This document shows, piece after piece, positions 3,507 through 22,132 of a stretch of 29,881 bases of DNA (the first letter of the stretch is position 1; each line of letters begins with the position of its first letter). The translations under genes were made by a program, and so were the position numbers. The notes under the pieces are model-generated. The model saw nothing but the letters and a program-made list of their open reading frames with translations. It did not search any database and was not told the origin of the DNA. Origin of the DNA: Syntrophus sp. (in: bacteria). Lineage in GTDB: Bacteria > Desulfobacterota > Syntrophia > Syntrophales > UBA5619. Location: NCBI GenBank assembly GCA_013824905.1, contig PNOO01000001.1, positions 1 to 29,881 of the forward strand. The letters are read 5' to 3'.

Positions 3507-3796
3507 TGTTGCCTCCCGATCCTTACTCTTTACCCCGTGATAGGTAGCGCCGCCCTCCGACCCGACAACGACCAACCCGTCGCCGGTTCGGAAAAAGTCG
3601 TATAATATATTTTTATAGCATGGATCGGAAACAGTTTCACGGCAGATTTTCCTGATAGTCGGATCAATCTCGAAAAATGATTGCATTTCCGCATTTTACA
3701 CGCTAAAATTGACCTGTTTTTCAGTAGATTTCATATCCTGCCAGCGCTTTGGCTTTATTTTTTAGTGCGCTCACGAATTCAAAGGAGGGAAATGGC

Positions 3797-6490
3797 ATGG
3801 GTAATCTGCAGAAACTCTTTAATCCGGAAACAATCGCCGTTATCGGCGCCACGGAGAAGGAAGGGACGTTCGGACGGGCCGTCCTGGAAAACGTACTGAC
3901 TTCGGGCGACCGAAAGGTCTATCCCGTCAACCCGAACCGGGAGACGGTCCTGGGAAACCCCTGCTGGTCCGAGATAGGCGCCGTGCCCGGACCGGTCGAT
4001 TTGGCCATCATCGCAACCCCCGCCGCTACTGTTCCCGGGGTGGTCGACGCCTGCGGCCGTGCCGGCGTGGGAGGGCTCATCATCATTGCCGCCGGTTTCC
4101 GTGAAGCGGGTGCGGAGGGAAAGCGCCTGGAGGAGGAGATCCTCAGGATCAACGCCGCCTACGGCATGGGGATCGTCGGCCCCAATTGCCTGGGAATCAT
4201 GAGACCTCCCCTTAACCTCAACGCCACCTTCCTCCGCGATAATCCGGACGCAGGAAACATCGCCTTTATTTCCGACGCGGGCAGTTTCGGCCGGACCCTG
4301 CTCGACTGGGGCATCAGCTCCCACATCGGTTTCAGCATGGTGGTGTCCCTGGGTTCGGCCATCGATGTGAATTTCGGGGATGTCATTGAATTTCTCGCCG
4401 ACGACCCACACACGAAAAGCATCATCCTTTACATGGAGGAGGTCGTCGGAAATGTGAAGCGTTTCGTCAGCGCCGTCCGCGGATTCGCCCGCTACAAGCC
4501 TGTCATCCTGCTCAAGCCCCCGATACTGATACTGGAGGATGAAGATTACGTCAGGCTGACCCACTCGGGCGCAATGGCCCGCCCGGAAAGGGTCTACGAT
4601 GCCCTCTTCCGCCGCCTGGGCGTTGTCCGGGTCCGCGAGGCCCAGGACCTCTTCAACGCTGCCGGCGTCCTTTTTTCCCGCAATCGCCCCAAGGGCCCCC
4701 GTCTGGCTATCATATCAAACGCCAATGGGATCGGAATCATCGCCGCCAAACAGTTGCTGACCTCCGGCGGCCTGCTGGCGGAGCTCTCCAAAGAGACGAC
4801 CATCCGGGCCATGGACGCCTTTATCCCCCCTTGCTGGAACCGGAGAAATCCCGTCCATATCCTCCGCAATGCCGATACCCCCCGGTATGCGGAGGCCGCG
4901 GAGATCTGTCTGAAGGATCCCGGAGTGGACGGGCTTTTGGTGATCTATACCCCCCAGGACTTCGCCCAACCCGAGGAACTGGCGGAGGCTCTTATCGCAG
5001 CGGCGGCCAAGACGGACAAGCCCCTGCTGACGGCATGGATGGGGGGGCGGGAAATGCTGCGGGGGCGCGAACTGATGGCGGAGAAAGGCATCCCCGCCTA
5101 TGAAACGGCGGAGGCTGCCGTCCGCGCCTACCTCTATATGATCCAATACGAGCGAAACCTTCAGCTCCTCCAGGAAACCCCTGCTGAACTCCCCCTGGAC
5201 GAGGCGCCTCCGAAGAACCACCTCAAGGCCCTCATCCGGCGCTCCTGTCGTGAGACCTGCTTTATCCTCACGGAGGAGGACTCCCGAAAATTTCTCCACA
5301 ACTATGGCATCCCCGTCATCCCTTCCCGGATGGCAACCACACTGGAGGAAGCGATGGCCGCCGCCCGGGAAATAGGGTACCCCGTGGTCCTCAAAGTGGC
5401 TTCCCCCGACATCATCTTCCGCCAGGATGTAGGAGGAGTCGTCACGGCCATCGATTGCGAAAAAACGCTGATAACCGCCCATCACCGGATCCTTGACGGG
5501 GTCCGCCAGTTCACCCCGAAGTCGACCGTACGGGGCGTGACCGTTCAGAAGATGGTCGAGCACATCGATTACGAGCTCATCTTAGGGGCTAAGAAGGACC
5601 GACACTTCGGCGCCGTCATCCTCTTCGGCATGGGGGGGATAGGCGTGGAGCTGTTCAGAGACTTCTCCGTCGGATTGCCGCCCCTGAACCAAACACTGGC
5701 CCGGCGGCTCATGGAGGAGACGCGTGTCTATCGTATGCTCCAGGGCTTCCGAGGGAAAACTCCCGCCGACATCCGGCAACTGGAGAAGATCCTGGTGGGC
5801 TTCTCCAGAATGATCGTCGATTTCCCCGAGATCCGGGAGATGGACATCAACCCTCTGGCCGTCTGCCAGGGCAAGGCCGTCGCCCTGGACGCCCGGATCC
5901 TCCTGGATCATGGTGTATACCAAGAGAAAGCATCAGCCTCGGCCTATCCCCACCTGGTCATTACCCCCTATCCGACACGGTATGTCACGCCCTGGCGTCT
6001 GATCGACGGAACCGAGGTCATCCTCCGCCCCATCCGGCCCGAAGACGAACCTCTGGAGCATGAGATGCTCTCGACCGTCTCGGCGGAGACCCTCCGTTCC
6101 CGGTTCTACCAGAACCTCAAGCACATCAGCCATGCCATGCACGTGAGGTCCTGCCACATCGACTACGATCGGGAGATGGCCATTGTGGCCGAAATACGCA
6201 CGGATCAGAAAAAACGCCTCATCGGCATCGGAAGTCTCGCCATCGACACGAACGGCGGCGGCACAGGGGAATTTGCCGTTATCGTTCACGACGACTTCGG
6301 AGGACGGGGCTTGGCGTCCAAGCTCCTGGATGTCCTCATCGGGATCGCCGCCGAGAGAGGCCTCAAGGAATTCTATGGATTTGTGGAGCCGACAAACGGC
6401 CGGATGACCGCCCTCTGTGAAAAGCTGGGCATGACCCGCCGGCGCGTCTCCGAAGATTTGGTACGGGTCAGTCTGACCCTGGAAGGTTAG
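3797..6490 (+). CDS. Acetate-CoA ligase (ADP-forming) family / GNAT acetyltransferase fusion (Pat-like), 897 aa
   Basis: CoA-binding N-terminus (IAVIGAT, YPVNP, VGPNCLG), ATP-grasp region (GYPVVLKVASPDI, EMDINPL) and C-terminal GNAT (LRPIRPED..GRGLASKLL). ATG 3797 follows AAAGGAGG. Confidence 0.9.
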   Translation: MGNLQKLFNPETIAVIGATEKEGTFGRAVLENVLTSGDRKVYPVNPNRETVLGNPCWSEIGAVPGPVDLAIIATPAATVPGVVDACGRAGVGGLIIIAAGFREAGAEGKRLEEEILRINAAYGMGIVGPNCLGIMRPPLNLNATFLRDNPDAGNIAFISDAGSFGRTLLDWGISSHIGFSMVVSLGSAIDVNFGDVIEFLADDPHTKSIILYMEEVVGNVKRFVSAVRGFARYKPVILLKPPILILEDEDYVRLTHSGAMARPERVYDALFRRLGVVRVREAQDLFNAAGVLFSRNRPKGPRLAIISNANGIGIIAAKQLLTSGGLLAELSKETTIRAMDAFIPPCWNRRNPVHILRNADTPRYAEAAEICLKDPGVDGLLVIYTPQDFAQPEELAEALIAAAAKTDKPLLTAWMGGREMLRGRELMAEKGIPAYETAEAAVRAYLYMIQYERNLQLLQETPAELPLDEAPPKNHLKALIRRSCRETCFILTEEDSRKFLHNYGIPVIPSRMATTLEEAMAAAREIGYPVVLKVASPDIIFRQDVGGVVTAIDCEKTLITAHHRILDGVRQFTPKSTVRGVTVQKMVEHIDYELILGAKKDRHFGAVILFGMGGIGVELFRDFSVGLPPLNQTLARRLMEETRVYRMLQGFRGKTPADIRQLEKILVGFSRMIVDFPEIREMDINPLAVCQGKAVALDARILLDHGVYQEKASASAYPHLVITPYPTRYVTPWRLIDGTEVILRPIRPEDEPLEHEMLSTVSAETLRSRFYQNLKHISHAMHVRSCHIDYDREMAIVAEIRTDQKKRLIGIGSLAIDTNGGGTGEFAVIVHDDFGGRGLASKLLDVLIGIAAERGLKEFYGFVEPTNGRMTALCEKLGMTRRRVSEDLVRVSLTLEG

Positions 6491-6495
6491 AAAAA

Positions 6496-6508
6496 TGGCG
6501 GGAGAGGG
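6496..6508 (+). repeat. Distal att site (displaced tRNA 3'-end fragment)
   Basis: tggcgg-gagaggg (6496-6508) matches tggcggAgagaggg (23532-23545, tRNA 3' end on the minus strand) with a 1-nt deletion. It sits 5 bp after the host gene stop. Confidence 0.8.
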
Positions 6509-6571
6509 TCTATCAAATAGAGATACTATCTATTTGAATACACTTATAAAACAGAATAAGAAGTTTCATAG

Positions 6572-6592
6572 ATACCCCCATAAATACCCCCA
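6572..6592. repeat. Probable integrase arm-type sites (2x ATACCCCCA)
   Basis: Direct repeat at 6572-6580 and 6584-6592. The same TGGGGGTA(T) motif recurs at the other island end. Confidence 0.65.
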
Positions 6593-6646
6593 AATATAGG
6601 GAGCTGGAGGGGCTTGGATGAACAAATCCGCCTTGCAACGCAAATT

Positions 6647-7786
6647 TTAACTCCCACTTTCAGACCTTCTTATGGCTTCTTTTTTGACATCCTTACCAGA
6701 AGAATAAAATTTCTTGTAAACCGCTTCGGCGATTTCATCGGCCTCCGTTGAAACTGACCTTTGAGTCATCGCCAGATTGCGGATGATTTCCCCCTGTCGC
6801 TGGCATGCAACCTCTCCATAGCTCAGAAAAGTCGTCAAAACTTTCTCATGTCCAAGGTTCTGGCTCCACGCCTTGAACTGTTCCGGCGTTTTGCAGACCT
6901 CTTCACCGAGTTGGGCAAGGGTATTTCTGAAGCTATGAGGATTGAAATACGGCAGCCCGGCGCTGATAAAGGCTTCGCGAAAGATAAATCGAATGGGCGA
7001 TGCGGTACTCCAGTGCTCCCGTGCCAGGCCTACCGCTGCAAATTGTCGATCAGGGCCTGGCACAACCCGCGTCGCCGGGAACAACGGATCGTCATTGCTC
7101 CACAGCTTCTCATCACGGAGATACAACGCCCACTCTGATATAATTGTACGAATTTCCTCGCCCACTGGAAAGAAGTATGTATTGAAGGTCTTGCTGAATT
7201 TCGTCTTTACCTCGCGGGCATCCTGGTTGACACATCCAGCTATAAGATCGACATGCTTCAGCTTCAGCGAGGCAATGGCGCTGTCCCTCGCTCCGGTTAA
7301 CAGCGTAAATGCCACTAAGGCGCGATTCCGGAGCTCTATCTCGGTTTTCGTTGGCATTGTATTGATGACGTGCTTGATCTGTTCCATTGTTGGGAACCTT
7401 TGCTGTCGTTTTGCAGTGGCAATGCGGGTATCTTTATCAGACAAATTGAAATACTCGGAATCGGCATATTGAACACGCGATTTGTAGCCAGGTTGCAACG
7501 CCAGCCACTGAAAGAACCGTTTGAGTTGGGTAAGGGTCGCATGCAGAGTCGCCTTACTCAGATTCTCCCCAGACTGCTGCCCCTTCTGCTCGGCAAGGTG
7601 CTTCTTGAAGGCGACGGCCTGCTCAAAGTGAAATGCCTTGAAATCTCGATAATTAGTGTATGACTCGAAGCGGCTCAGAGCTTTAGCGGTCGCGTCAACC
7701 GTTGGCTCGCTGTGACGCTTGGCTTCCTTTAGAAAAACGAAGTACTTTCGCTTGATCCGTTCATTGGCTGGATTGTGCTTTTTCAT
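6647..7786 (-). CDS. Tyrosine recombinase (second, non-P4 type), 379 aa
   Basis: Complete catalytic set: TGARDSA (R), HSFR, NLGH and TFLSYG (Y). ATG 7786 follows AGGGGA. Confidence 0.88.
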   Translation of the reverse strand: MKKHNPANERIKRKYFVFLKEAKRHSEPTVDATAKALSRFESYTNYRDFKAFHFEQAVAFKKHLAEQKGQQSGENLSKATLHATLTQLKRFFQWLALQPGYKSRVQYADSEYFNLSDKDTRIATAKRQQRFPTMEQIKHVINTMPTKTEIELRNRALVAFTLLTGARDSAIASLKLKHVDLIAGCVNQDAREVKTKFSKTFNTYFFPVGEEIRTIISEWALYLRDEKLWSNDDPLFPATRVVPGPDRQFAAVGLAREHWSTASPIRFIFREAFISAGLPYFNPHSFRNTLAQLGEEVCKTPEQFKAWSQNLGHEKVLTTFLSYGEVACQRQGEIIRNLAMTQRSVSTEADEIAEAVYKKFYSSGKDVKKEAIRRSESGS

Positions 7787-7802
7787 GGTCTTATATCCCC
7801 TA

Positions 7803-8270
7803 TCATAAGTCACTATTTACGGAAGGTCTGGCACTCTCAATTAGATGTTGAAGTGCTTCCGGGAAGCTGATGTCCATTTTCCCGCGAAACTCCTCGATCT
7901 GGGTCATGCTGACGTGCCGGTTCATCAAGGAATTGCAGTCCGGGCAAATGGCAATGAGGTTGCCGAACTTCTCAGTGATGGGTGAATATTCCGCCATGTC
8001 ACCGGCGGGCGATCTCGGGGCGCGGCAGCGCACGCAATAGAGTTCCCCCAGCTTGCAGGTCTGCTTGTTTTTTACACGGCGAGCCTGAAGAAATGCCACC
8101 AGAACATGACCAAGAATCAATAGAGGGCGTTTGTCGTCGATGGTAGCAAGCCCTTCCTTAACCCAGCGGCGCACTGTATTTTTGTGGATACCGAACAGCT
8201 TGGCAATCTCTTCAACCGTGTAGCTGCGGTGAATCTTTACTAGACGGTGGTTTGGGTGACGTCTTTTCAT
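7803..8270 (-). CDS. Excisionase/MerR-like HTH protein with C-terminal CxxC..CxxC zinc ribbon, 155 aa
   Basis: YTVEEIAKLFGIHKNTVRRWVKEGL is an HTH_17-like motif. YCVRC and ICPDC form two Cys pairs. Confidence 0.8.
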   Translation of the reverse strand: MKRRHPNHRLVKIHRSYTVEEIAKLFGIHKNTVRRWVKEGLATIDDKRPLLILGHVLVAFLQARRVKNKQTCKLGELYCVRCRAPRSPAGDMAEYSPITEKFGNLIAICPDCNSLMNRHVSMTQIEEFRGKMDISFPEALQHLIESARPSVNSDL

Positions 8271-8273
8271 AGT

Positions 8274-8387
8274 TTACCTTACCAAAGTATCGCTAACAAT
8301 TTTCTTGTCGGGCGAAACGAAAAGCGATGAGACCGGTGAAACCGATTTCACCACTCTTACTAGCCAAACATTGGCCGTCTTCATCAT
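8274..8387 (-). CDS. Small ORF, 37 aa (MMKTANVWLVRVVKSVSPVSSLFVSPDKKIVSDTLVR), not in the ORF track
   Basis: Its ATG overlaps the AlpA TGA (ATGA), and its TAA ends 3 nt before the next ATG, so it fills the gap exactly. Confidence 0.5.
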   Translation of the reverse strand: MMKTANVWLVRVVKSVSPVSSLFVSPDKKIVSDTLVR

Positions 8388-8638
8388 CTCCCCCATTCCT
8401 TCGCCCCCTTGCGGGCCGCTTCCAGTTTCGTCACCAGGACACGGATTTCGTCATCTGTCTTCCCGGCAATACGTGCCGCGTTGATTGCCTCTACTTCGTC
8501 AGATGGCCACCCGACCGCCCGAGCTCCGAGGGACACTGGCTTTGTCCATAACCCTTGCGAAACCCGTAAATAAATGGTGGAGCGGGAAAGCCCTGATTCA
8601 GATTTGACAGCCGGAATCCTTAGTATGGTACGCTTCAT
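8384..8638 (-). CDS. alpA: AlpA-family regulator / recombination directionality factor, 84 aa
   Basis: ILRIPAVKSESGLSRSTIY..PVSLGARAVGWPSDEV is the AlpA signature. ATG 8638 follows GGAGG. Confidence 0.9.
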   Translation of the reverse strand: MKRTILRIPAVKSESGLSRSTIYLRVSQGLWTKPVSLGARAVGWPSDEVEAINAARIAGKTDDEIRVLVTKLEAARKGAKEWGR

Positions 8639-8851
8639 CTTCAAACCTCCTTGAAAGGTATTGGAAATCTTGAGACGAAGCGTAGATGGGCGATTTGGGC
8701 GATACAATACCCAGGCAAAGCTAAGCTTTTACTCGATATTTCTATATAATTCAGCTAGTTGTATGTTTCATAGGAGTTGCACCATAATAGGCGAAATTGA
8801 TATTTTACTGCGGAAAGTGGCAAGAAAACGTAGGTTTACCGGAAGGTGGAA

Positions 8852-8887
8852 TTGGGCGAAAAATTTCCGCCCAACTTTTTTTATTTT
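8852..8887 (+). promoter_or_regulatory. Inverted repeat TTGGGCG-N9-CGCCCAA followed by a T-tract (terminator or operator)
   Basis: Arms at 8852-8858 and 8868-8874, followed by cttttttta-ttttt on the + strand. Confidence 0.5.
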
Positions 8888-9009
8888 TGGTTCATCAGGT
8901 TAATGCGTACTTCTCTCTCGTTCACCTACCTACTGTTCAGGGACTAGCAGTTGTGACAACCGAACATTACTGATAGAAAGAAAGTAATGTACAGTTCAGC
9001 GACAGAACT

Positions 9010-9320
9010 TGGAGACTGCCGCTGATCCGCATGGTTTCCCTGCATTTCAGGCAAGTGAGCAGATCGATCTCATAGTTTTTTTGAATCAGATTGACCCAGC
9101 TTGTTCTGGCATGCCGCCGGTGACCTGTTTGATTCGATGATTTACGGGATTGAGCCGTCTTTGGCTCTCTTCTGCCTTTTCCCCCCGAGTGCCGTTGCTC
9201 TATCAACCGTAGTACCAAACCATCTGTTCTCCCCGGTTTGGGACATCCGAACACATGGACGCGAGCCATTCTTGGGCGTCGCAGCCCTTCCGGTCTTTAC
9301 CGTTTCGTCGACGGCATGTC
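9010..9320 (-). pseudogene. Decayed C-terminal fragment of an IS91-family (Y2/HUH) transposase
   Basis: DAQEWLASMCSDVPNRGEQMVWYYG**SN, then after a frameshift SWVNLIQKNYEIDLLTCLKCRETMRI. These match the recalled IS91-like C-terminal motifs (EWLA..HIP..GEQMVRYYG.YSN; WARLI.K.YEVDPL.CP.C...MRI). In-frame stops TGA TAG are present. Confidence 0.75.
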
Positions 9321-12300
9321 GTGTTTCGCTGCTGCCGGACCAGCAGCAGGCCTTGGCTTCGCAGCGTCGGGCGGCTTGGGATTGAGAGGTGGCAACGTTG
9401 TCCCTTCGTTTTGTAACTGTATGGCCTGTTTGGGTTTGTCCGCAATGAAGTTGGTGTAGAAGGTATAGAACCCGGTTAACCCGACAAGAATCCCGATTAT
9501 CCAATAGATGCTATTCAACCATGTAGTTTTTTCCTTTTGTTGTGTTGGTGTTGGTGGAAGCGTCATTTGTATCGACAGTTGTTGGTTTTGGTGAAACTTG
9601 CCTTCCCTTAAAAGCGTGGTGAGGATTTCTTGCACCTGATCCTTCGACATCATGTCGCGATTCATTTGATCATCCGGATAGTGATCGAGGTCACGCTCAT
9701 AGGCTCGGTGTTCCACAATGCCGCCGAGCAGATCCGCGATGGAGACGTTTCTGAATGGATATGGTGGCTTCTCACACCGAATATGAAACTCGTTTGCAGT
9801 GATATAATCTTGAAGTCGTGAAAGCTCGAACATGGTGGGGTTTGGAATTTCGCGACAAATGGGGCAGGTGCATGGCACGAGCGGTTCCACGTCCACCCTT
9901 GGGAAAGACTGTATGTGTACCGCGTCGATGGTGCCACGGATAAGGGCTAGAAAATCCTTGACCGGAAGCCGGTTTCCTCTGACCGAAATATCGATGAGTT
10001 TGAGACCCTCTTTGGAAAGATCCTTTTTAACCAATGCCTTGCATCCGTCCTTGCATAGAATGATGCCGCTCTTCCACACCAGGTCCTCTTTGTCGGGGTT
10101 TTTCGCAATCCAGTCATTCAAGCGAACGATGAGCCGGGTGATGATCCCTTCGGGCATGAACTTGTACCTGTACTGAAAGGACAAGGTGCCTTTTTTGTCC
10201 CAATTGTTGGCCTCCACCGGCGCCACGTCCGAAAGCAGTAGCGGCGCGATGAACGTGTCGGCTTTACCTTTTCCTCCTTCAACGCGGTAAACGAGGTCGA
10301 ACTCCTTTTTCTGCATCAGGTTGAGGAGCTTGTTCTTTTCCTCAAAGCTGTATTGATCGCTCCATTTGTCGAATAGCAGCGTTTTTTCAAACCGGCCATG
10401 GGTCTTCTCGATGTCCTTGTCCGACAGGATCATGTACACGGCCTTTGATATCCACTGAGGATTGACGAACAACGTGTCCGCCAGGGCTGTGTCGTTTCGA
10501 AAGTGAAGAATAATGCCGAGGGTGTTGAGAAAGTTGCATACCGCGAGTTGGTCCGCCTCTTCGGTGATTTCCTGCTTCTTGCAGATCTCCTTGAAATCGG
10601 CCATCGTGATATGGTTCTTCCTCTGTTGTTCGATGACGGCTTCCCGAACCCTGATCCAACTTGCCGGCAGTTCTTCTCCCACGTGTTTTAGACCTGTCAA
10701 CAGCTTTTTGATTTGAGAGGCGATGCCGGCAAAGCGATAGTCTTCCTTGAATAGATTGATATCCTCATACTCGAGGACTCTCAAATCGTTGCCGTACCGG
10801 TTTTTATACAGGTTCCAATCAAATCCTGTAGAAGATTCGATGTTCTTTCGATTGCGAACCACCAGCACAGGGCTGTCTTTGCCGAGAAGATGGATGATTC
10901 GGAACCAGTAGTCGATGTTGGGACAGTCTTTTCGATCATCCAGCATCAGGACGTAGAGGGCATCCTCCGTGAGAAAGAACTGGTGGATATAGTATTGAAT
11001 CTGCTGTCCTCCGAAGTCCCACAGGTGCGCTTTAAAGGACTTCTTTCCCTCGGCTGTGTATTCGAAATCAAACAGCCAATTCATGTATACGTTGATGCCC
11101 AAGGTAGAATCTTCTTCCCGCGATGGGTCGATTCTGTACGTATCATCCACCAGTCGCTTCATGAGCGATGTCTTGCCGGCCTTGGGTTCTCCCACAAAGA
11201 GCACCTTGGCTTCGTAGAGCTTATCCTTCTTTTTGGCCTTCTGTCGGTAGAAGCTGCGGATATCTTCAATATTGGCAAGTTGGACTACATAGCTTTTAGG
11301 TAAATCCGATACCGTTGTTTTTTCAAGAAGCAGATGGCGAAGATTCAATAAACTCAAAATGATTGCAAGACTTGTGAGTTTGTTTCCGCTGAGGTCGAGA
11401 GCGGTCAGCCCTTTAAGCTCTTTTAGGAACGAGAAGTCAGTGAGGTTGTTTCCGCTGAGGTCGAGAGCGGTCAGCCCTTTGAGCTCTTTTAGGAACGAGA
11501 CGTCCGTGAGTTTGTTTCCGCTGAGGTAGAGAGAGGTCAGCCCTTTGAGCTCTTTTAGGAACGAGACGTCCGTGAGGTTGTTTCCGCTGAGGTAGAGAAA
11601 GGTCAGCCCTTTGAGCTCTTTTAGGAACGAGACGTCCGTGAGTTTGTTAAAGTTGAGGCAGAGAGCGGTCAGCCCTTTGAGCTCTTTTAGGAACGAGACG
11701 TCAGTGAGGTTGTAAAAGCTGAGGTCGAGAAAGGTCAGCCCTTTGAGCTCTTTTAGGAACGAGACGTCAGTGAGGTTGTAAAAGCTGAGGTAGAGAGCGG
11801 TCAGCCCTTTGAGCTCTTTTAGGAACGAGACGTCCTTGAGGTTGTTAAAGCTGAGGTCGAGAGAGGTCAGCCCTTTGAGCTCTTTTAGGAACGAGACGTC
11901 CTTGAGGTTGTTAAAGCTGAGGTCGAGAGAGGTCAACCCTTTGAGCTCTTTTAGGAACGAGACGTCCGTGAGGTTGTTTCTGCTGAGGTCGAGAAAGGTC
12001 AGCCCTTTGAGCTCTTTTAGGAACGAGACGTCCTTGAGTTTGTTTCTACTGAGGTCGAGAGAGGTCAGCCCTTTGAGCTCTTTTAGGAACGAGAAGTCCG
12101 TGAGTTTGTTTCCGCTGAGGTAGCGAGAGGTCAACCCTTTGAGCTCTTTTAGGAACGAGAAGTCCGTGAGTTTGTTTCCGCTGAGGTCGAGAGAGGTCAG
12201 CCCTTTGAGCTCTTTTAGGAACGAGACGTCCGTGAGGTTATTTCCACTAAGGTCGAGAGAGGTCAGCCCTTTGAGCTCTTTTAGGAACGAGAAGTCCGTG

Positions 12301-12761
12301 AGTTTGTTTCCGCTGAGGTCGAGAGAGGTCAGCCCTTTGAGCTCTTTTAGGAACGAGACGTCCGTGAGGTTGTTAAAGCTGAGGTAGAGAGAGGTCAGTC
12401 CTTTGAGCTCTTTTAGGAACGAGAAGTCCGTGAGGTAGGGTGCCGAGATGCTGAGTATTTTAAGCTTGTGCAACCGGTTAAGAAAAACAAAATCACGAAT
12501 ATCGTTGAAGCGGATAATCAACGTTTCAATCTCTTGAAGGTCGCCGAGCAACCTGCCCTCGGAAAAGCAGGTATTGTTCAGCCAAAGGGTTACGATGTTT
12601 CCGCTTTCGCTAAAAAAATAGCCCCGTTTGGGTCGATCGGGGTACGTTTCCAATTCATCAAGATTGAGTTCAGGAAACGGTACACCTATCTGTACACCTA
12701 TCTGCTCGATGATGCGCATATCCGATATGTTGTCGGTTGAAGTGATTGAACTTGTTTCCAT
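9297..12761 (-). CDS. Bacterial Roco protein: LRR array, ROC GTPase, COR domain and C-terminal transmembrane helix, 1154 aa
   Basis: LRRs; P-loop GEPKAGKTS (11166-11192); G2 DSTLGI; G3 WDFGGQ; COR motifs LGIILHF, VNPQWI and MPEGIITRLIVRL; hydrophobic segment IYWIIGILVGLTGFYTFY. Confidence 0.92.
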   Translation of the reverse strand: METSSITSTDNISDMRIIEQIGVQIGVPFPELNLDELETYPDRPKRGYFFSESGNIVTLWLNNTCFSEGRLLGDLQEIETLIIRFNDIRDFVFLNRLHKLKILSISAPYLTDFSFLKELKGLTSLYLSFNNLTDVSFLKELKGLTSLDLSGNKLTDFSFLKELKGLTSLDLSGNNLTDVSFLKELKGLTSLDLSGNKLTDFSFLKELKGLTSRYLSGNKLTDFSFLKELKGLTSLDLSRNKLKDVSFLKELKGLTFLDLSRNNLTDVSFLKELKGLTSLDLSFNNLKDVSFLKELKGLTSLDLSFNNLKDVSFLKELKGLTALYLSFYNLTDVSFLKELKGLTFLDLSFYNLTDVSFLKELKGLTALCLNFNKLTDVSFLKELKGLTFLYLSGNNLTDVSFLKELKGLTSLYLSGNKLTDVSFLKELKGLTALDLSGNNLTDFSFLKELKGLTALDLSGNKLTSLAIILSLLNLRHLLLEKTTVSDLPKSYVVQLANIEDIRSFYRQKAKKKDKLYEAKVLFVGEPKAGKTSLMKRLVDDTYRIDPSREEDSTLGINVYMNWLFDFEYTAEGKKSFKAHLWDFGGQQIQYYIHQFFLTEDALYVLMLDDRKDCPNIDYWFRIIHLLGKDSPVLVVRNRKNIESSTGFDWNLYKNRYGNDLRVLEYEDINLFKEDYRFAGIASQIKKLLTGLKHVGEELPASWIRVREAVIEQQRKNHITMADFKEICKKQEITEEADQLAVCNFLNTLGIILHFRNDTALADTLFVNPQWISKAVYMILSDKDIEKTHGRFEKTLLFDKWSDQYSFEEKNKLLNLMQKKEFDLVYRVEGGKGKADTFIAPLLLSDVAPVEANNWDKKGTLSFQYRYKFMPEGIITRLIVRLNDWIAKNPDKEDLVWKSGIILCKDGCKALVKKDLSKEGLKLIDISVRGNRLPVKDFLALIRGTIDAVHIQSFPRVDVEPLVPCTCPICREIPNPTMFELSRLQDYITANEFHIRCEKPPYPFRNVSIADLLGGIVEHRAYERDLDHYPDDQMNRDMMSKDQVQEILTTLLREGKFHQNQQLSIQMTLPPTPTQQKEKTTWLNSIYWIIGILVGLTGFYTFYTNFIADKPKQAIQLQNEGTTLPPLNPKPPDAAKPRPAAGPAAAKHDMPSTKR
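11379..12434 (-). repeat. 16 contiguous 66-bp tandem repeats encoding 22-aa LRRs
   Basis: 16 x 66 = 1056 bp. Unit is L[TK]D[VF]SFLKELKGLT[SFA]L[DYC]L[SN][GFR][NY][NK], with no unique spacers. Confidence 0.97.
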
Positions 12762-12769
12762 AGGCCGTA

Positions 12770-12798
12770 AGTATGAGGACGGGGGGGTTGTATGTCAA
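12770..12798 (-). promoter_or_regulatory. Sigma70-like promoter for the Roco gene
   Basis: Minus strand TTGACA (12798-12793), 17-bp spacer, CATACT (12775-12770), 8 nt before ATG 12761. Confidence 0.65.
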
Positions 12799-12826
12799 GG
12801 TGATTTTTCGCAGGTGATTTTTCGCA
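12799..12826. repeat. Perfect 14-bp tandem duplication (GGTGATTTTTCGCA x2)
   Basis: Copies at 12799-12812 and 12813-12826, abutting the -35 box. Confidence 0.9.
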
Positions 12827-12865
12827 ACCTGTTGTGTCGATAGTTCATATTAATCGGACGAATCT

Positions 12866-13654
12866 TTATTGTTTCATTCGTTTACGGATGGTTTCTGCAT
12901 CGCGGCCTTGGGCAATGTTCAGCTTGGCAATCTGCTGAGAGCACCAAACGCCGGACATCCCAGGGCGTTTTCTTCGCAATGCACGATATTCCTTCCGCCA
13001 GCTCTCGTACATGGCTTTTGTATCCAGCTTGCGAGCTTCCATCCTGGCGTTGCTTGGCGTGTAGCGGTTATCTGCCGTGGTAGTGGAATCGGCCAGCCGT
13101 CGGATCTGCACAGCATCGAGCATATATGCGCCTTCGTGAAATTCAATGAACTCGGCCAACGGGACCTTGCTGTTCCCGGCGACCAGGGTCAACGCGCCCG
13201 AAGCTTCGAGGCATAGCATCTGGCTGCGTTTATCACCGAAAACAATGCCAATTTCCCATCGGCCGGCACTATCTGCTTGCCTGGCGGGGTGGCGCAGATC
13301 AAGGCAAGATGCGACAAAGCCGGATACCAAATCGGGACTGCACTGCCATTGTATTAACCTTTCGGGGGGAACCGGCACCCGATTTATATCGCTGCGCTTG
13401 TCACAAAGGATAAACGATGCCTGGGTGCCTGCTGTTGCGAGCAGGGTACGCAAGGGCATTACACAATTGCTCTCGCACCCTGGACATATAGCGCTTGATG
13501 CCGGACGCGCTTTTACGATCAGCTTTTGGGATTTCATGGCCTTAACTGCCGCCCTGGGCCATTGGCGCAAATCTTCATCATTAACCAGAACCGCAGTATC
13601 CTGGCAGGCACCCACACATCCCAAAAGCTCAAGCAATGCATCAATTGACGTCAT
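12866..13654 (-). CDS. Hypothetical protein, 262 aa, with Cys cluster and possible C-terminal HTH
   Basis: Long ORF whose ATG overlaps the upstream TGA (ATGA). Contains CPGCESNC..LCDK and a basic helical C-terminus (SQQIAKLNIAQGRDAETIRKRM). Confidence 0.8.
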   Translation of the reverse strand: MTSIDALLELLGCVGACQDTAVLVNDEDLRQWPRAAVKAMKSQKLIVKARPASSAICPGCESNCVMPLRTLLATAGTQASFILCDKRSDINRVPVPPERLIQWQCSPDLVSGFVASCLDLRHPARQADSAGRWEIGIVFGDKRSQMLCLEASGALTLVAGNSKVPLAEFIEFHEGAYMLDAVQIRRLADSTTTADNRYTPSNARMEARKLDTKAMYESWRKEYRALRRKRPGMSGVWCSQQIAKLNIAQGRDAETIRKRMKQ

Positions 13655-14871
13655 AATTTAACCGGTCTTTTCCCCTCGGGATTTTTCGCCGGTTCCTTGG
13701 GCTCGATCCCGGACGCTTCCAGCATGTCGCGCAGTTTTAGCCCCAGCTCGTCGTATTTGAGAGAGCAAGAATTGGGATATGTAATACGGATGGAAATCCG
13801 TTTCGCGGGTTTGTTGGAATCCACAACAACTGACGCCGATAGCTCAACCTGTGTGAGGTTGTACATATCCAAAGGGATTGCCTTTCCGATCTGGTCGAGC
13901 AAGACGTAGATGGCATCAGAGTTTCGCGAGGTATCGGCTTCCAGCGTAATGCGATCCCCTTTCTTAATCTGCGAGGAAAGCCGCAGTTTCTTAACCGTCA
14001 CTTCCTCGATGCCGCTGCCAACGTCGTAGGTGAAATCAAAACCTCTCTGGCGCAGCGGAGTCAGATCATAGATTCGTTCGTCTTTTGGATCAGGCGGCAG
14101 TTCATCGATCTTGAGAATCGCCGTTGCGAACATGCCCTGGAGAGGTTCAATGGCCTTATAAGACCCGCGAAAGTTCAGGTCGAGGGAACCCTCCTTTTGC
14201 GAGTAAACATAAATGACCTCGAAAGCGGGATTGTGAGGCCGACGGTCAAACTCGCCATTGACCCATTCGATGCTTTGCTGCGAATAATCTTCGGGATAGG
14301 CGAAAAAATAATCAAGTTCTCCCCGCCGGAAAGGTTCTACCACACAGTTTTTTCCCCGGCCCTCAGTATGGTGGAAATAATGGCGGATCAGCGCGGCCAG
14401 TTGCTGAAGGCTGGCCTCATCCACCGCTGCTGTTCGGTGCGGTAGATTTTTACGCTTGCGCCAATAGGGCATCGTATCCGCATGATAGAAGAGCGTGGCC
14501 CCCCTCCAGAAACAATTGTGATCCAAAAAGGTGGCCATTGCACGTTCATAGTGATTGGATAGGGCCGACAGCTTTTCAATAAAGGTCTTGAGAGCATCCG
14601 GGGTTTCCCGCATTTGCCAGTTTGCCTCGTCAATGATCGCCTGAAAGCCCTTTTCGCAGCTCATCTCGAAGATGTCCCGAAACTCTGAATCCATCTTATT
14701 ACGCTGGCTGTCCGGCAGAGCCAGCCAGGCCTCAAATAGCTCATCCGGCTTGCCCTCCTTCATAGCGGTGAAGTCCATATTGCCAAACAACCCACGCTCA
14801 TTAAAGTAGCGTCCAAGCAGAGCATTCGGCATCTGTCGGAGGAAGTTTTTTGTTGAGTATTGCCCGGCCAT
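13651..14871 (-). CDS. Hypothetical protein, 406 aa
   Basis: Long ORF. ATG 14871 follows AAAGGAG. No domain recognised. Confidence 0.85.
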   Translation of the reverse strand: MAGQYSTKNFLRQMPNALLGRYFNERGLFGNMDFTAMKEGKPDELFEAWLALPDSQRNKMDSEFRDIFEMSCEKGFQAIIDEANWQMRETPDALKTFIEKLSALSNHYERAMATFLDHNCFWRGATLFYHADTMPYWRKRKNLPHRTAAVDEASLQQLAALIRHYFHHTEGRGKNCVVEPFRRGELDYFFAYPEDYSQQSIEWVNGEFDRRPHNPAFEVIYVYSQKEGSLDLNFRGSYKAIEPLQGMFATAILKIDELPPDPKDERIYDLTPLRQRGFDFTYDVGSGIEEVTVKKLRLSSQIKKGDRITLEADTSRNSDAIYVLLDQIGKAIPLDMYNLTQVELSASVVVDSNKPAKRISIRITYPNSCSLKYDELGLKLRDMLEASGIEPKEPAKNPEGKRPVKL

Positions 14872-14907
14872 GTGATCTCCTTTCTTTGGCACTTTTTCCG
14901 CAAAACG

Positions 14908-14937
14908 ATAATAATACTTTCAAGTCCTTTAAGTCAA
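14908..14937 (-). promoter_or_regulatory. Putative sigma70 promoter for the 406/262-aa pair
   Basis: Minus strand TTGACT (14937-14932), 18-bp spacer, TATTAT (14913-14908). Confidence 0.5.
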
Positions 14938-15113
14938 CAGAGTCAGTTCTATAGCCGACTTATTCAATTACGACAGAATGGTATCCTGAACCGCAGAAGA
15001 GCGATGAAAACATGAAATGTGCCGGTCAGTCCACTGTGGAGTATTTATTGTAGTCAGTGAATGAGACTGACGCGCTTTTGTAGCAGCTTTCACTCCGTAC
15101 TACTCAGGTAAGA

Positions 15114-15341
15114 TCAAGGAAAATCTGAACCGTACTGGTTATCGCTGTCACTTACAATTGTTGATGGCCAAGATACGACAAGCGTAAAAATTACGGATTG
15201 ATAGCTTCTACGATACGTTTCAGTGATTGGCCTAAAGCGACGCGGAAACCGATCAGCCTGCGAGCATTTGTTGTATGGCCGCTCCTGTAGAGAAATGGGG
15301 GTAGCGGCATCAGGAAGAACATAGTGGCATGTTCTACTCAT
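15114..15341 (-). CDS. Possible small hypothetical protein or decayed gene, 75 aa
   Basis: AGGAGG lies upstream but far from the ATG (~14 nt). No motif recognised. Confidence 0.25.
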   Translation of the reverse strand: MSRTCHYVLPDAATPISLQERPYNKCSQADRFPRRFRPITETYRRSYQSVIFTLVVSWPSTIVSDSDNQYGSDFP

Positions 15342-15389
15342 AATAATTTTTTACACCTCCTACTACTTGGCGGTTCTCGCCACACCCCA

Positions 15390-16091
15390 TCAAGTCCTAT
15401 TCCAAGTCGTCCATCTACTCAGTATGGCCGCACCTGGACAGCGGCAGTTCTTGGTAATCGTAACCCAGTTAAATTCATCTATAAGTTTTGGGATAGATGA
15501 GTGTGGTCGGTCCAAGTATCTTGGAAGATCATAAAGTGATATGCCTTGCACTTTGCATTGTGATTCCAGCTGTGAAAGGGCTCTTTTCATATCCATATGG
15601 AAGCGATAGTAAGACTGTCCCGAAGCATCATATTTGAGTTTAGCTCTTATCGGCTCATCCCAAAGTACGAGGGCTTTGGGGCGTAAAGCAAAAAGGATTT
15701 TTGCTGCGCCAGTCGCTCCAATAGAAACTGGTATCCGCCCAGATCCCTTAGCTCTATGACTCGCTATTTTCCCCATCAGGTTTTCATAAGCCCTGCTGGT
15801 TAATTCAAGTTCTTCTGGCAACATCGAGTATAAGTCAGTATCCTTTACAGGCAAGATGTCTCTGTAGTCCTCATACCACTGTAAAATCTCCCCGCTTGCT
15901 TGGTCGTGACACTCCACGGAAAACTGTCTACATCCCCATTTGTTAAGCCAGGTGATGAGAGCCTGCCGATGGTCAGCAGATGTCAAGTCCAAGTCGTCAT
16001 TAATCCTCCCCTGGAAAGAACGATATGAGTTGTCGAAATCGCTCATACTGGCATAGATGTAACATGCAAAAGCAAGTTCGCCCAGGTTCAT
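15390..16091 (-). CDS. Helix-hairpin-helix (HhH-GPD/DUF6308-like) protein, putative DNA glycosylase-like, 233 aa
   Basis: IGATGAAKILFALRPKALVLWD resembles the G-x-T-x-A-(S)-K-x-L..P....(W/Y)D HhH motif, and there is a late KLIDEFNW motif. Strong RBS GAGGAGG. Confidence 0.55.
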   Translation of the reverse strand: MNLGELAFACYIYASMSDFDNSYRSFQGRINDDLDLTSADHRQALITWLNKWGCRQFSVECHDQASGEILQWYEDYRDILPVKDTDLYSMLPEELELTSRAYENLMGKIASHRAKGSGRIPVSIGATGAAKILFALRPKALVLWDEPIRAKLKYDASGQSYYRFHMDMKRALSQLESQCKVQGISLYDLPRYLDRPHSSIPKLIDEFNWVTITKNCRCPGAAILSRWTTWNRT

Positions 16092-16096
16092 AATCT

Positions 16097-17137
16097 CTAA
16101 TCCTCCTCCTGCGCCGCAACCGACCAGATACGCTTGAGGGGTAACTCGGCTTTTAAATCTTCGTCGAGTTTGTCATAGTGAGTGAAGAGTTGTTCCAGCA
16201 GTTCTTTCTGAGTCCAGAGCCGAACCTTAAAAAAACTTGCCGCCAATTCTTTTGGCACGTTGCTCTTGAACCCGCTCCATGAAACAAATAAACCTTCATT
16301 TGCACCGAACTTGCTCACCGCACCGAGCAGCTTGTCCACCATAGAACGGTCGATGGGCGATGTTTCCGATTTCACCTCGACGCAGAGCCTCGGCTCACTG
16401 AAGCCAAGCGGACCGGAACCAGCAAGAATATCAGCCCCGCCATCGGCGCCTTCCGGGCTTCGATAAGTTGTGTAGCCTTGGGCCGTGAGAATGGCCTCAA
16501 CCAATCGTGTCAACCCGTGCCCCTTGAATTTGGCCTCAATGACTCGGGCAATCTGGTCGCGTGACAGTTCTTCAAGATCTGGCGCAGCAACATGTTCGTC
16601 ATTATCAGTAGCGACAGCAGGCTTCACCTTAACAGCCGCAAGGTTTTCAGGTTTCCATCCGTTTGCCCGCATTGCAGAAATCCTGGATTCTGCATTGTTA
16701 CGCTGTATACGACATACAGTCATGAATGCGCCAAAGGAGTAGAGAAGGTCTTGGCTGAAATTTGAACGCGGGATGGTTTCACCAATCCATTTCACCGGTC
16801 GCCAGTGATAAAAGGGGCTCGGCCCTTTCTTTTCAAAGTGGTAATCCCCGGTGATTTCTCCGATGTAAATAGCGGGTTGTGATTTGAGCGGCAAGACGAC
16901 AAGATCACCTTGTTTCATATCGTGTGCGAACGGCCAGACCTGGCTTACCCAATTATAGAGGCGCTTCGGCTTTGCATCGGAATATATCTTCTCCATGAAT
17001 GTAAAAAGATCATTACGATTGCTCAGTTTCGACAGATCTTCCGTAAGGTTGTCTTTCGTTAAATAGACGTGCTTATCCTGGATGAACTTTTGTTCGTATT
17101 CGCCGTGCGAGCCGGCGCGGATTAACCAGATAGCCAT
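16097..17137 (-). CDS. Mrr-like (type IV) restriction endonuclease with N-terminal EVE/PUA-like domain, 346 aa
   Basis: C-terminal ADGGADI..CVEVKS..GLFVSWSGF (Mrr_cat). N-terminal IWLIRAG..MKQGDLVVLP..IGEITGDY..RPVKW. ATG 17137 follows GGAGG. Confidence 0.85.
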   Translation of the reverse strand: MAIWLIRAGSHGEYEQKFIQDKHVYLTKDNLTEDLSKLSNRNDLFTFMEKIYSDAKPKRLYNWVSQVWPFAHDMKQGDLVVLPLKSQPAIYIGEITGDYHFEKKGPSPFYHWRPVKWIGETIPRSNFSQDLLYSFGAFMTVCRIQRNNAESRISAMRANGWKPENLAAVKVKPAVATDNDEHVAAPDLEELSRDQIARVIEAKFKGHGLTRLVEAILTAQGYTTYRSPEGADGGADILAGSGPLGFSEPRLCVEVKSETSPIDRSMVDKLLGAVSKFGANEGLFVSWSGFKSNVPKELAASFFKVRLWTQKELLEQLFTHYDKLDEDLKAELPLKRIWSVAAQEED

Positions 17138-17150
17138 AGCAGCACCTCCA

Positions 17151-18308
17151 TTATTGCTCAGTTTCACCCGGATTAAAGAATACATTTAGTCGGTCTTCAT
17201 ACACGGATAGAGCAGACGCGACAACACTATCTTCATCACATCCGAAAACAAATTCACCGTCATCTCTTGGAGCATTGGCATAAAAGGCTGTCGCTGCAAT
17301 TTCAGAAAGATATTGTTCCAAATCTTCACGGTTCGAAACGGTTGTTTGGTGTTTTTCACCATCGAAATCAAACAGAGTAATGGTCTTGTCTCTATCATCC
17401 CAAAGAGCATTTTCAAGTGCATCTTCCACTGCCAAGCGTGCCGCTGTATCCCATGGCATTTCGCTGTCGTCATTCCATGATAGTTCCCAATTAGACAAGA
17501 ACTGATTGAGCATGTTATTAACTTGTTGCAGTGCATTCAGATAGTTTTCTGTTATCCGCTGCGACGGACGACGGTTGTGGGCGACACAATTCCTCATGGC
17601 TTCAATGGAGGTCATTCGCTCGCGCAAGCCGGCGAGAAACACGGCATCATCCTCGTCTTCGATCGGCTGCCTTTCCAATTCACGCCGGAGCGTTTCGTAA
17701 GTCTCGTTTGACTGAATTAGGCTTAAGAGGGTTGGTAACTGGCGCATGTCGGGGCGTCGGTTCAATTTCACATATTGCCCTAACGTAAGGAAGAAAAATT
17801 CATTCTCACCAGTAGCCCGCATCTGCTGTTCTTGTGGTGAGTTTATGGGCTTCTCTGACTCTTCGCGAAGGAGGTCATAGGGCCTCTCGATATAACCGTA
17901 GAGATATATAACGGAAATGACACGGCGCAGCTTCATTTCAAGCGCAAAGAGTTCTTCCGAACGTTGTGCAAGTTCGCGACGAAGCAATGGGTCTTCAAAC
18001 TTCACAGCGTGTTCAATCGGCGTGTCCAGAAGAGCATCAGCGAATTCATCAACGACAGTACGAAAGCTTGCAGTTTCGTCAGGTAGTTCGATCGAGAAGC
18101 CGAGGATGGTTCGCCAATGGGTTACACCAGCTTCATCGTTTACTGGATCGCCGATACGCTCGAAGTTTAATGTGAGCATCTGTAAGATCACATCATCGTC
18201 AAACTGGTTAAGGTTGTCCGTCAGCACAATGCGCAGACGGTCAAGCAGAATATCGGAGATGCTCATGCCTTCTTCTCTTTGATAGACGATGACATACTCA
18301 AATTTCAT
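17151..18308 (-). CDS. HEPN-domain protein (Swt1-like), putative RNase, 385 aa
   Basis: RNCVAH (R-x4-H, 17577-17594) preceded by LEMKLRRVI and FLTLGQY, a Swt1-type HEPN pattern. Acidic C-terminal domain. Confidence 0.75.
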   Translation of the reverse strand: MKFEYVIVYQREEGMSISDILLDRLRIVLTDNLNQFDDDVILQMLTLNFERIGDPVNDEAGVTHWRTILGFSIELPDETASFRTVVDEFADALLDTPIEHAVKFEDPLLRRELAQRSEELFALEMKLRRVISVIYLYGYIERPYDLLREESEKPINSPQEQQMRATGENEFFFLTLGQYVKLNRRPDMRQLPTLLSLIQSNETYETLRRELERQPIEDEDDAVFLAGLRERMTSIEAMRNCVAHNRRPSQRITENYLNALQQVNNMLNQFLSNWELSWNDDSEMPWDTAARLAVEDALENALWDDRDKTITLFDFDGEKHQTTVSNREDLEQYLSEIAATAFYANAPRDDGEFVFGCDEDSVVASALSVYEDRLNVFFNPGETEQ

Positions 18309-18310
18309 GG

Positions 18311-19726
18311 CTAGATGCCTCCCAAGAGTTGTTCTTCAAACCAACGCTTGGCTTTTTGCCAATCGGTTTCGGCTTCGACTCGCAGGCGGCGTGCTTCATC
18401 AAGGCGGCGGTGAGATTCGTACACAATAGCCTCCTGCACTGGCTTTGGAGGTATAATAAGTGGAATTTCACCAATCTCTTCTAAATTGATGTTTGCACGA
18501 GCAACCGGACGTTTAAAGAAGTCAAGCAATGCTTGGCCAACGCTGGAGCGTAGATAAAGGCAAGCATATTCCGTAGAAACTTCATTGCCTGCCAATCTGA
18601 CTGCTGCTATTGCTTGATTTATGTTCGCGGGCTCGTCGCGGTTAAATACACCGGCAGCCCCTATCGTTGCGCCGACAATTGCGATGAGTAAATCACCAGA
18701 TTCAAGCTGCGAGTGCTTCATCAAGCCATTGTGAATAGAGGCGCTTATATGGACCTCACTATTTGGTGTCACTGCCCCGTCCGCGGTGATTTCGCCGCTA
18801 CGAATAAAGCGTACACCATCGGGTGGAAGGACGTAGGAATCACCTTTAGCCAGTGGAGTAACCCCGGAAAAAATGCGTGACGCGAGCTCTTTAAAGGATG
18901 CTACGCGATAACTGGATCGGTGGATATAGGCGAACAAGTTCCTAAATCGCAACTGGTTTGAATAAGCATCGATTCGTTTGCCAAGATCGCTAACTCGCAC
19001 AGCAAAAAATTTGCAATTATCCTTTGGCGGCTGTGTTAGGCCGAGGGTATCAAGGAGGAAACCGTCGAGACCGGTAAGCAACGACTCAGCCTCCGCCAGT
19101 TTCGCTCGCCGAGTCATTCGCGCAGCATCCATAACAGCGACAATATTCGATTGCACTTTTAAGATATCTGGAAGTGGAATTTCGAAACTCTTAAACTCCT
19201 CCTTGTTGATGTTTGGTTGTCCGGCCGGCCTCTGAATTTTGGTAACCCACCGCGCGTAGAAGTCTGTTTTTGTACACCAGTAGACAAAACGAGGAAGGAC
19301 AACATCGTGTTTGAAGCGAAAGCGAATGCAGTAGCCTGCAAAGATTGCAGACTCACTTGTGTCTTCATGGATATATGTTTTCCCTACCGTTGCGCCACTT
19401 CTGGCAAATAGTAGATCATCAGCATGAAGGATGCATTCCGGTTCAATAGGATCAGCCGTTACATAATCGTGACCAGGCTCAATGCCATCATCGCCGAAAT
19501 CTGTTATCCGAATGTAGCGTGGCTGAGTTTTTTTTGTACGTTGGACTGCACGAGCACCGGACCCGTAGTTCGGCTCTTCGCTAACCAACGAAGCCAGACT
19601 CCGCAGGGGGTGAAGTACCTCAGAGAGAGATTCGCGAAGCGCGAAGTATTTCGCATCGCATCGGCCCCTTATCTCGCCCCGCTGAACCGCAAAGCACTGA
19701 GCTTTGCCCGCTTCAACAGGGCTCAG
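18311..19726 (-). CDS. Restriction-modification specificity (S) subunit with two TRDs, ~471 aa
   Basis: Two HsdS-like repeats (DLLFARSGATVGK / DLLIAIVGATIG; GQPNINKEE / ARANINLEE). The frame is open 46 codons upstream of the ORF-track start, back to a CTG overlapping the methylase stop. Confidence 0.85.
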   Translation of the reverse strand: MSPVEAGKAQCFAVQRGEIRGRCDAKYFALRESLSEVLHPLRSLASLVSEEPNYGSGARAVQRTKKTQPRYIRITDFGDDGIEPGHDYVTADPIEPECILHADDLLFARSGATVGKTYIHEDTSESAIFAGYCIRFRFKHDVVLPRFVYWCTKTDFYARWVTKIQRPAGQPNINKEEFKSFEIPLPDILKVQSNIVAVMDAARMTRRAKLAEAESLLTGLDGFLLDTLGLTQPPKDNCKFFAVRVSDLGKRIDAYSNQLRFRNLFAYIHRSSYRVASFKELASRIFSGVTPLAKGDSYVLPPDGVRFIRSGEITADGAVTPNSEVHISASIHNGLMKHSQLESGDLLIAIVGATIGAAGVFNRDEPANINQAIAAVRLAGNEVSTEYACLYLRSSVGQALLDFFKRPVARANINLEEIGEIPLIIPPKPVQEAIVYESHRRLDEARRLRVEAETDWQKAKRWFEEQLLGGI

Positions 19727-21768: not shown

Positions 21769-22132
21769 TATTCCCCCTGTCTATTTGCCCAATCATTTCT
21801 ATTTGAATCTAACATCCCTATCTCTTCTGTCTATAACATAATTACTAAGAAAATAACATTAATGATTCCGAGTTGAAACCCTGTATCTCCAACGAGGATG
21901 ATGTTTGTTGCTTGCTTGATGACATGCGCTTTTCCCATAGGCAGGAAAATATACGATTCTGTCCTCGACATTACAAACCGTATTCAATGAGCTGAGCCGA
22001 TCGTCCCGACTATCGCTTTGTTTTTGGAATTGAGTATTCTGGATAAGGAGAAACGCTGTCACACAGATGGTTGGCTCCACAATCGAGTCAACGTCTTCTT
22101 CGATCTGGCCCGTAATCGCCAAGATCTCCTGG

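Follow-up and report, generated by a model that had tools for sequence, protein, structure and literature searches.

The presence of a Roco gene with an apparent membrane anchor in the genome of a Syntrophus sp. raises the question as to what such a protein does for the bacterium that carries it. Bacterial Roco proteins, whose own function is undefined, are structural models for the Parkinson's disease kinase LRRK2, and the idea that they are immune sensors rests on comparative genomics alone. The gene lies in a 29,881-nucleotide stretch of contig PNOO01000001.1 (the window), which comes from a metagenome-assembled genome (MAG) of 517 contigs that is 82% complete. An original prediction, made from the letters of the window, had read it as a single-gene anti-phage or anti-mobile-element system acting at the membrane. 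Our analysis shows a leucine-rich repeat (LRR)-Roc-COR protein carried on a mobile island, whose single predicted transmembrane (TM) helix stands where close relatives carry exchangeable effector domains, and we consider it a plausible single-gene conflict sensor, as yet a predicted one, that adds to a class already predicted in silico.

The open reading frame (ORF) is intact over 1154 codons, with an upstream stop just 11 codons before the ATG, and Pfam assigns to it an LRR_4 match (E 1e-68) followed by a Roc G domain with COR-A and COR-B directly C-terminal of it, as the Roco family requires (Table 1). The G1 (GEPKAGKTS, aa 524) and G3/switch II (WDFGGQ, aa 581) motifs are both intact and the G4 motif reads NRKN (aa 637), an N-x-K variant instead of NKxD that is clade-wide in the homologue alignment. 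By sequence its best match among solved structures is with Methanosarcina barkeri Roco2 (4wnr, 3e-47), next with Chlorobaculum tepidum Roco (CtRoco; 3dpu/6hlu/8r4b, ~1e-42) and then with LRRK2 (~1e-19). An AlphaFold model covering aa 509-1154 and built with 12 homologues has predicted local distance difference test (pLDDT) values of 75-95 over Roc-COR, and Foldseek aligns it with the CtRoco RocCOR structure 3dpu (E 3.7e-30, TM-score 0.72, target-normalised), with 6hlu (1.1e-28) and with LRRK2 (~1e-26). By sequence and by fold the protein belongs to the Roco (Roc-COR) family. Within its 1154 residues no enzyme domain was detected, and NCBIfam returned only LRR/internalin and small-GTPase domain matches with no system-level match. 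Pfam, the structure matches and the model thus agree with the original prediction of an LRR-Roc-COR architecture that ends in a single TM helix rather than in an enzyme.

Beyond COR-B the chain runs through an acidic 67-aa linker into the predicted TM helix and a Pro-rich tail, close to where these two had been proposed (~9447-9521 for the helix). Residues 1081-1106, a run of 26 without charge, are modelled as helix (pLDDT 57-73) and residues 1107-1154 as disorder, and no folded domain follows COR-B. In the topology that we envisage the Pro-rich tail would lie outside the cytoplasm. Searches with aa 1005-1154 gave no Pfam (E<=1) or PADLOC match and nothing usable in the ESM Atlas, and no homology of this region to a known TM effector module of the Cam1, CBASS or Pycsar type was found, the likeness to these being architectural only.

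In order to place this ending within the family we compared it with those of relatives. A search with aa 500-1154 returned 168 relatives at E<=0.001, the best 120 of which were used. The nearest, at 38-60% identity over Roc-COR and tail, have the same ending, that is a linker, one TM helix and a hydrophilic low-complexity tail, and the relative P0002 is 59% identical over 98% of aa 500-1154. When the Roc-COR core of 60 sequences was placed in a maximum-likelihood tree, the window protein fell in a 17-member clade with a Shimodaira-Hasegawa-like approximate likelihood ratio test (SH-aLRT) support of 100, made up of 12 single-TM proteins, three multi-TM proteins (P0013, P0014 and P0016), one with a TIR domain (P0019) and one with another soluble tail (P0003). 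The TIR, multi-TM and other-tail members are nested among the single-TM ones, with EAD8, EAD11 and CHAT endings further out, and the 60-sequence tree needs 15 changes of tail class. By Pfam, the alternative occupants of this position are TIR_2, CHAT, EAD8 and EAD11. Since the same position holds TIR, CHAT, EAD or multi-TM modules in relatives, the TM helix occupies the family's exchangeable C-terminal effector/adaptor slot, the place of its output; within the clade the TM ending is retained across deep divergence.

The original prediction had also pointed to a cluster of Cys residues after the GTPase module. The cluster, C-x-C-x2-C-x26-C, is real and its four Cys are invariant across the alignment of 12 single-TM homologues. 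It is also found in multi-TM, EAD-like and CHAT relatives (P0031 is without it), and because it is kept in relatives with other tails it belongs to the end of COR-B rather than to the tail. It is probably a zinc knuckle.

At the other end of the protein the LRR array consists of 16 near-identical units, which degenerate caps extend to aa 94-489. The repeats are 88-93% identical in DNA and their scaffold codons are near-identical over all the units (CTA, AAA and GAG, for example, in 16/16), while the variation falls mostly at those x positions of LxxLxLxxNxL that are exposed (9, 11, 14, 16, 18 and 20), with a choice of two or three residues at each. Pairwise codon differences among the repeats comprise 480 non-synonymous versus 151 synonymous changes. 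The variable LRR that had been expected is therefore present, with its variation concentrated on exposed positions. The array looks as if it had been amplified or homogenised not long ago while diversity was maintained on its binding face, which would fit a recognition module. As 66-nt repeats are difficult for short-read assembly, the number of 16 is the repeat number as assembled. One core Leu, at aa 213 in repeat 6 (~12123-12125), is replaced by Arg (LTSRYLS, CTC to CGC), which could be genuine and destabilising or could stem from an error in sequencing or assembly.

The gene is foreign to its host and lies on a mobile island, as had been proposed. GC content is ~0.49 (0.48-0.51) within ~6.5-23.5 kb versus 0.58-0.60 in both flanks, a direct repeat, TGGCGG(A)GAGAGGG, occurs at 6497 and 23532, and a P4-type integrase adjoins the tRNA-Ser gene. 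The left-flank CoA-ligase/GNAT gene (3749-6490) has an orthologue in same-genus genomes at 82-88% amino acid identity, and the flanking genes place the host in the Syntrophales. In five same-genus genomes ~6493-6506 is joined straight to the tRNA-Ser (23532), followed by the right flank, and this empty site proves a strain-specific 17-kb insertion at 6497-23531. In four other genomes of the genus (L088, L091, L093 and L094), which include the closest relative (93% nucleotide identity), homology breaks at the same junction and gives way to unrelated DNA, which marks the tRNA-Ser site as an insertion hotspot; no tRNA-Ser or homologous right flank was found within the flank fetched for these four. 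A search of 40 relatives (14 from the host's genus, 10 from its family and 16 from its order) did not find the Roco gene. Two tandem islands were also considered and rejected, no internal att copy having been found.

The cargo of the island agrees in part with the restriction-modification, HEPN and Mrr neighbours that the original prediction had listed. A type-I-like methylase/S subunit pair is present, as is an Mrr_cat nuclease whose PADLOC match is the candidate PDC-S02 (E 6e-155). The 385-aa product of the ORF at 17151-18308 (minus strand), situated between the S-subunit and Mrr genes, gave no Pfam (even at E<=1), NCBIfam or PADLOC match, and its identification as HEPN was dropped for lack of Pfam support. 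When seven island proteins were compared by tblastn with the surroundings of ~80 other Roco loci, none of them matched. As no island neighbour recurs there, a single-gene, autonomous unit is plausible; a multi-gene system was dropped, since no conserved partner gene was seen at the fetched Roco loci.

Table 1 Coordinates of the Roco gene, its domains and the surrounding features in the window
Feature	Position	Strand	Details
Roco gene P0001	9297-12761	minus	1154 aa; LRR - Roc - COR-A - COR-B - linker - TM - Pro-rich tail
16 near-identical 22-aa LRR units	11361-12416	minus	aa 116-467; 66-nt DNA period
Roc G domain	10845-11207	minus	aa 519-639; Pfam Roc E 2.5e-23
COR-A	10233-10667	minus	aa 699-843; Pfam E 2e-35
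COR-B	9723-10187	minus	aa 859-1013; Pfam E 3.9e-28; pLDDT 75-91
Four-Cys cluster	9774-9872	minus	C964-x-C966-x2-C969...C996 (C-x-C-x2-C-x26-C); end of COR-B
Acidic linker, mostly low-confidence	9522-9722	minus	aa 1014-1080; one predicted helix aa 1042-1062
Single predicted TM helix	9444-9521	minus	aa 1081-1106; contains GxxxG (GILVG)
Disordered tail, 48 aa	9300-9443	minus	aa 1107-1154; 21% Pro
17-kb integrative island	6497-23531		low GC; imperfect 13/14-nt repeat of tRNA 3' end at 6497
tRNA-Ser(CGA), integration site	23532-23625	minus	
P4-type tyrosine integrase	22133-23350	minus	adjoins tRNA-Ser
Co-resident defence genes	15390-21768	minus	N6-methylase/HsdR-N fusion, type I S subunit, 385-aa protein, Mrr_cat nuclease, 233-aa protein
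Promoter-like site TTGACA-17-CATACT	12770-12798	minus	10/12 matches
Two perfect 14-nt tandem copies of TGCGAAAAATCACC	12799-12826	minus	abut -35 hexamer
100-aa ORF	8967-9269	minus	28 nt past Roco stop

The reading that we tentatively favour, at a chance somewhat under even, is that the protein is a single-gene LRR-AP-GTPase (Roc)-COR conflict sensor, tail-anchored and GTPase-switched, whose output is delivered at the membrane through re-packing of TM helices. The 1080-aa LRR-Roc-COR body, which has no signal peptide, would stay in the cytoplasm and depend on GTP, with the C-terminal helix tail-anchoring the protein in the inner membrane. The LRR, through its hypervariable concave face, would bind an invader-derived or invader-altered protein, and ligand binding would shift Roc-COR to another nucleotide and dimer state, a shift that has been shown biochemically for C. 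tepidum Roco. The TM helices might then re-pack or cluster and so compromise the proton-motive force or the barrier that the membrane provides, which would halt growth of the infected cell ahead of any spread of the phage or mobile element (abortive infection). The version in which the Roc-COR nucleotide/dimer cycle gates a bundle of tail-anchor helices, and LRR recognition of a phage protein opens a depolarising pore, has a real chance but strikes us as doubtful.

A number of observations weigh against such a mechanism. The known Roco cycle runs from dimer to monomer and offers no obvious route to a multi-helix pore. The hydrophobicity of the TM helix is marginal, with a 19-residue Kyte-Doolittle score of 1.52 that falls slightly under the usual cut-off of 1.6; the segments aligned with it score 1.75-2.6 in 10 of 11 relatives (1.49 in P0018). 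The sequence of the TM helix and tail is poorly conserved, forming singleton clusters with almost no invariant position past aa 1012, and a membrane effector is therefore indistinguishable from a mere anchor. The MAG holds one Roco copy, unlike the multi-paralogue sets of Kaur et al. PADLOC-DB v2 returned for the Roco protein only mad8 (E 0.0029), with no single matched stretch passing. No experimental defence test of any bacterial Roco or AP-GTPase was found in the searchable literature. Finally, three of the better-resolved genomic contexts of TM-tailed homologues are metabolic.

This last point bears on the expectation that TM-ended Rocos sit among defence genes, which a crude scan of neighbourhoods upheld only partly. 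One TM-tailed context holds an AAA_21 ATPase and a Mu-like transposase, and another an MNT/HepT toxin-antitoxin pair directly downstream. Among 20 neighbours of three further single-TM loci we found AAA_21, trypsin, AAA_16/TPR and Schlafen-AlbA2 proteins and also ClpB, BshC and LemA, and these 20 matched 12 PADLOC models at E<=1e-10, a count that includes generic ClpB-like, trypsin and AAA_21 matches. With some defence-type neighbours beside the metabolic ones, and with a scan that had no matched control, the neighbourhoods are mixed and the link to defence is suggestive at best. For the idea of a single-gene membrane anti-phage system as a whole, the architecture, the island, the tail slot and the lack of a recurrent neighbour speak in favour, while the mixed neighbourhoods of the homologues and the likeness of an effector to an anchor speak against.

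The main rival explanation keeps the immune sensor and takes the TM helix as an address tag only, holding LRR-Roc-COR at the inner membrane, for example at sites of phage DNA entry or of phage membrane-protein insertion, with protection arising from stoichiometric binding and sequestration or from an unlinked partner. An anchor would be expected to keep its architecture while its sequence drifts, as this tail does, and the want of a folded domain after COR-B fits too, as does the view of Kaur et al. 2020 that many such systems look like direct non-enzymatic interactors. The tail nevertheless stands in a slot that bona fide effectors (TIR, CHAT) fill in close relatives, and no conserved partner gene was found beside ~80 Roco loci. 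Of the 12 TM helices examined, 11 have small-xxx-small motifs and five the strict GxxxG, which also tells against a mere anchor, though weakly, as such packing motifs are common in TM helices generally. On balance we think a pure address tag somewhat unlikely.

Alternatively, the protein might be a membrane-tethered Roco signalling GTPase without an immune role, one that serves the syntrophic life of the cell, for example in interactions at the envelope, in aggregates or with partner cells, and rides on the island as a passenger. The undefined physiological role of bacterial Rocos leaves room for this, eukaryotic Rocos act in trafficking and signalling, and several homologues lie among metabolic rather than defence genes. 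Some cyanobacterial relatives also have conserved synteny, which suggests vertical inheritance: in three Microcoleus/Tychonema loci (L026, L029 and L032) Rocos ending in a Gly/Ala-rich hydrophobic segment are preceded by the same genes of 156, 690, 409 and 105 aa and followed by one of 213 aa, and in that lineage they would be inherited vertically rather than carried on mobile islands. Set against these points are a sporadic distribution linked to horizontal transfer, the hypervariable LRR face, the exchange of the tail with TIR, CHAT and EAD, hallmark conflict modules, and the restriction genes on the same island, and we judge a non-immune role to be unlikely.

The remaining explanation, that the gene is a decaying or mis-assembled passenger with a collapsed or expanded LRR array, a non-functional product (through L213R, for example) and a C-terminus reshaped by an ISCR-like relic, draws on the fragmentation of the MAG, the high DNA identity of the repeats, the Leu to Arg change and a weak ISCR-like fragment 28 nt downstream, and is very improbable given a frame unbroken over 3.4 kb, intact G1/G3 motifs and Cys cluster, and a TM and tail architecture that recurs in 11 independent metagenomic homologues.

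The fragment in question is a 100-aa ORF with a weak match to the C-terminal portion of ISCR/IS91-type transposases (NF052416, ISCR clade Ia; E 0.001, far under the cut-off) and may be a relic of the entry of the Roco gene into the island. That it truncated an original effector was considered and rejected, the TM-tail architecture being common to the 11 homologues; these, together with the alignment of P0002 over nearly the whole of aa 500-1154, make the C-terminus ancestral rather than made by an insertion sequence.

Upstream of the gene, to which the original prediction had given a strong promoter of its own, lies a well-placed promoter-like site. Its -10 hexamer stops 8 nt ahead of the ATG, and the mRNA would therefore be nearly leaderless. 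Promoter-like sites in the region number three versus 2.6 in shuffles, no excess. Next to the -35 hexamer, the tandem pair of TGCGAAAAATCACC is a possible binding site for a regulator.

The comparison of relatives also yielded a number of observations on other members of the family. In species-representative genomes the wider family is found mostly in filamentous cyanobacteria, Saprospiraceae, Chitinophagales, large sulfur bacteria, Pyrinomonadaceae, Aminicenantes and ANME-1 archaea, and it has many more tail types that carry no family name. One is the multi-TM tail, which has the form TM - NPK(R/K)R(Y/F) - TM(s) - ...LD(H/F/Y)KQ C-terminus in P0013, P0014, P0016, P0040, P0056 and others (loci L004 and L053) and for which no Pfam family was found. 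As a candidate membrane effector it is better conserved than the single-TM tail. Another is a short tail of ~35 aa past COR-B ending in ...LQPNFFGLGIDINKLIKKLF, which is conserved among many archaeal (ANME-1/Methanophagales) and bacterial Rocos (L049, L050, L058, L059, L063, L065, L077, L080, L081 and L082) and looks like an amphipathic helix, possibly a membrane-binding one. In some relatives (P0004, P0005 and P0007) Roc-COR and STAND-type NTPase signatures (PF20720, PF05729 or PF00931) share a single polypeptide, which thus has two NTPase switches. In two metagenomic contigs ~1.8 kb ahead of the closest homologues is without a called gene (L002 8142-10001 and L003 8212-10001); the LRR matches of these homologues are faint or weak, and their LRR arrays may have been frameshifted or collapsed in assembly.

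As a subject for experiment the locus is a compact, clonable test case, combining in one gene with a promoter-like site and a mobile island an intact GTPase switch, a hypervariable and very regular LRR and the simplest of outputs. If the membrane-acting conflict sensor proved true it would provide the first physiological function for any prokaryotic Roco protein, it would bring a GTPase-switched, enzyme-free membrane output that is new to GTPase-based immune receptors and to the defence repertoire, and it would set an evolutionary precedent for membrane-centred LRRK2 biology. Were no defence phenotype to appear, a widely repeated prediction would be weakened.

Among known proteins LRRK2 and LRRK1 share with the window protein an LRR followed by the Roc-COR-A-COR-B core, and the window protein is without their kinase, WD40, ankyrin and armadillo domains. 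LRRK2 associates with membranes through Rab-mediated recruitment, whereas the window protein would use an intrinsic TM helix. CtRoco (3dpu, 6hlu, 8r4b) and M. barkeri Roco2 (4wnr) have the same LRR-Roc-COR order but differ in having NKxD at G4 where the window protein has N-x-K, and the matched PDB chains are without the linker, TM helix and Pro-rich tail. Alignments of CtRoco with the window protein end at ~aa 964, just short of the four-Cys cluster.

The nearest class is that of the counter-invader systems centred on AP-GTPase, for which the immune-sensor reading of Rocos has already appeared in print, as a prediction made in silico (Kaur, Iyer, Burroughs & Aravind, eLife 2021, PMC8195603). 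As set out in the passages of that paper used here, these systems combine rapidly evolving LRRs with AP-GTPase and COR and at least 24 types of C-terminal domain, including GT4, TIR, caspase, trypsin, FGS and EADs. The window protein has the same N-terminal LRRs, the same Roc and COR and a variable C-terminal module, and relatives in the class carry TIR, caspase-like CHAT and EAD modules at the position of its tail. The TM-tailed form appears in the tables of the paper, which include COR+TM architectures (Fig. 6D and source data), and is absent from the discussion in those same passages. The class tends, as a tendency and not a strict requirement, towards several paralogues with different effectors in one genome and towards filamentous or multicellular hosts, where the window gene is the only copy in its Syntrophales MAG, and unlike the class as described the window gene is carried on a demonstrable tRNA-Ser island.

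For the output, the closest parallel is Cam1, a CRISPR type III CARF effector which, in the cited passages (PMC10808066), joins a sensor to a TM-helix module and acts by membrane depolarisation. No similarity of the window protein to Cam1-type effectors was found by sequence or profile, and Cam1 senses through a CARF domain that binds cyclic oligoadenylate versus the LRR and GTPase switch of the window protein. In overall design, as far as those passages describe Cam1, the two would be alike, each setting a cytoplasmic ligand-sensing domain on a minimal TM module with no enzyme.

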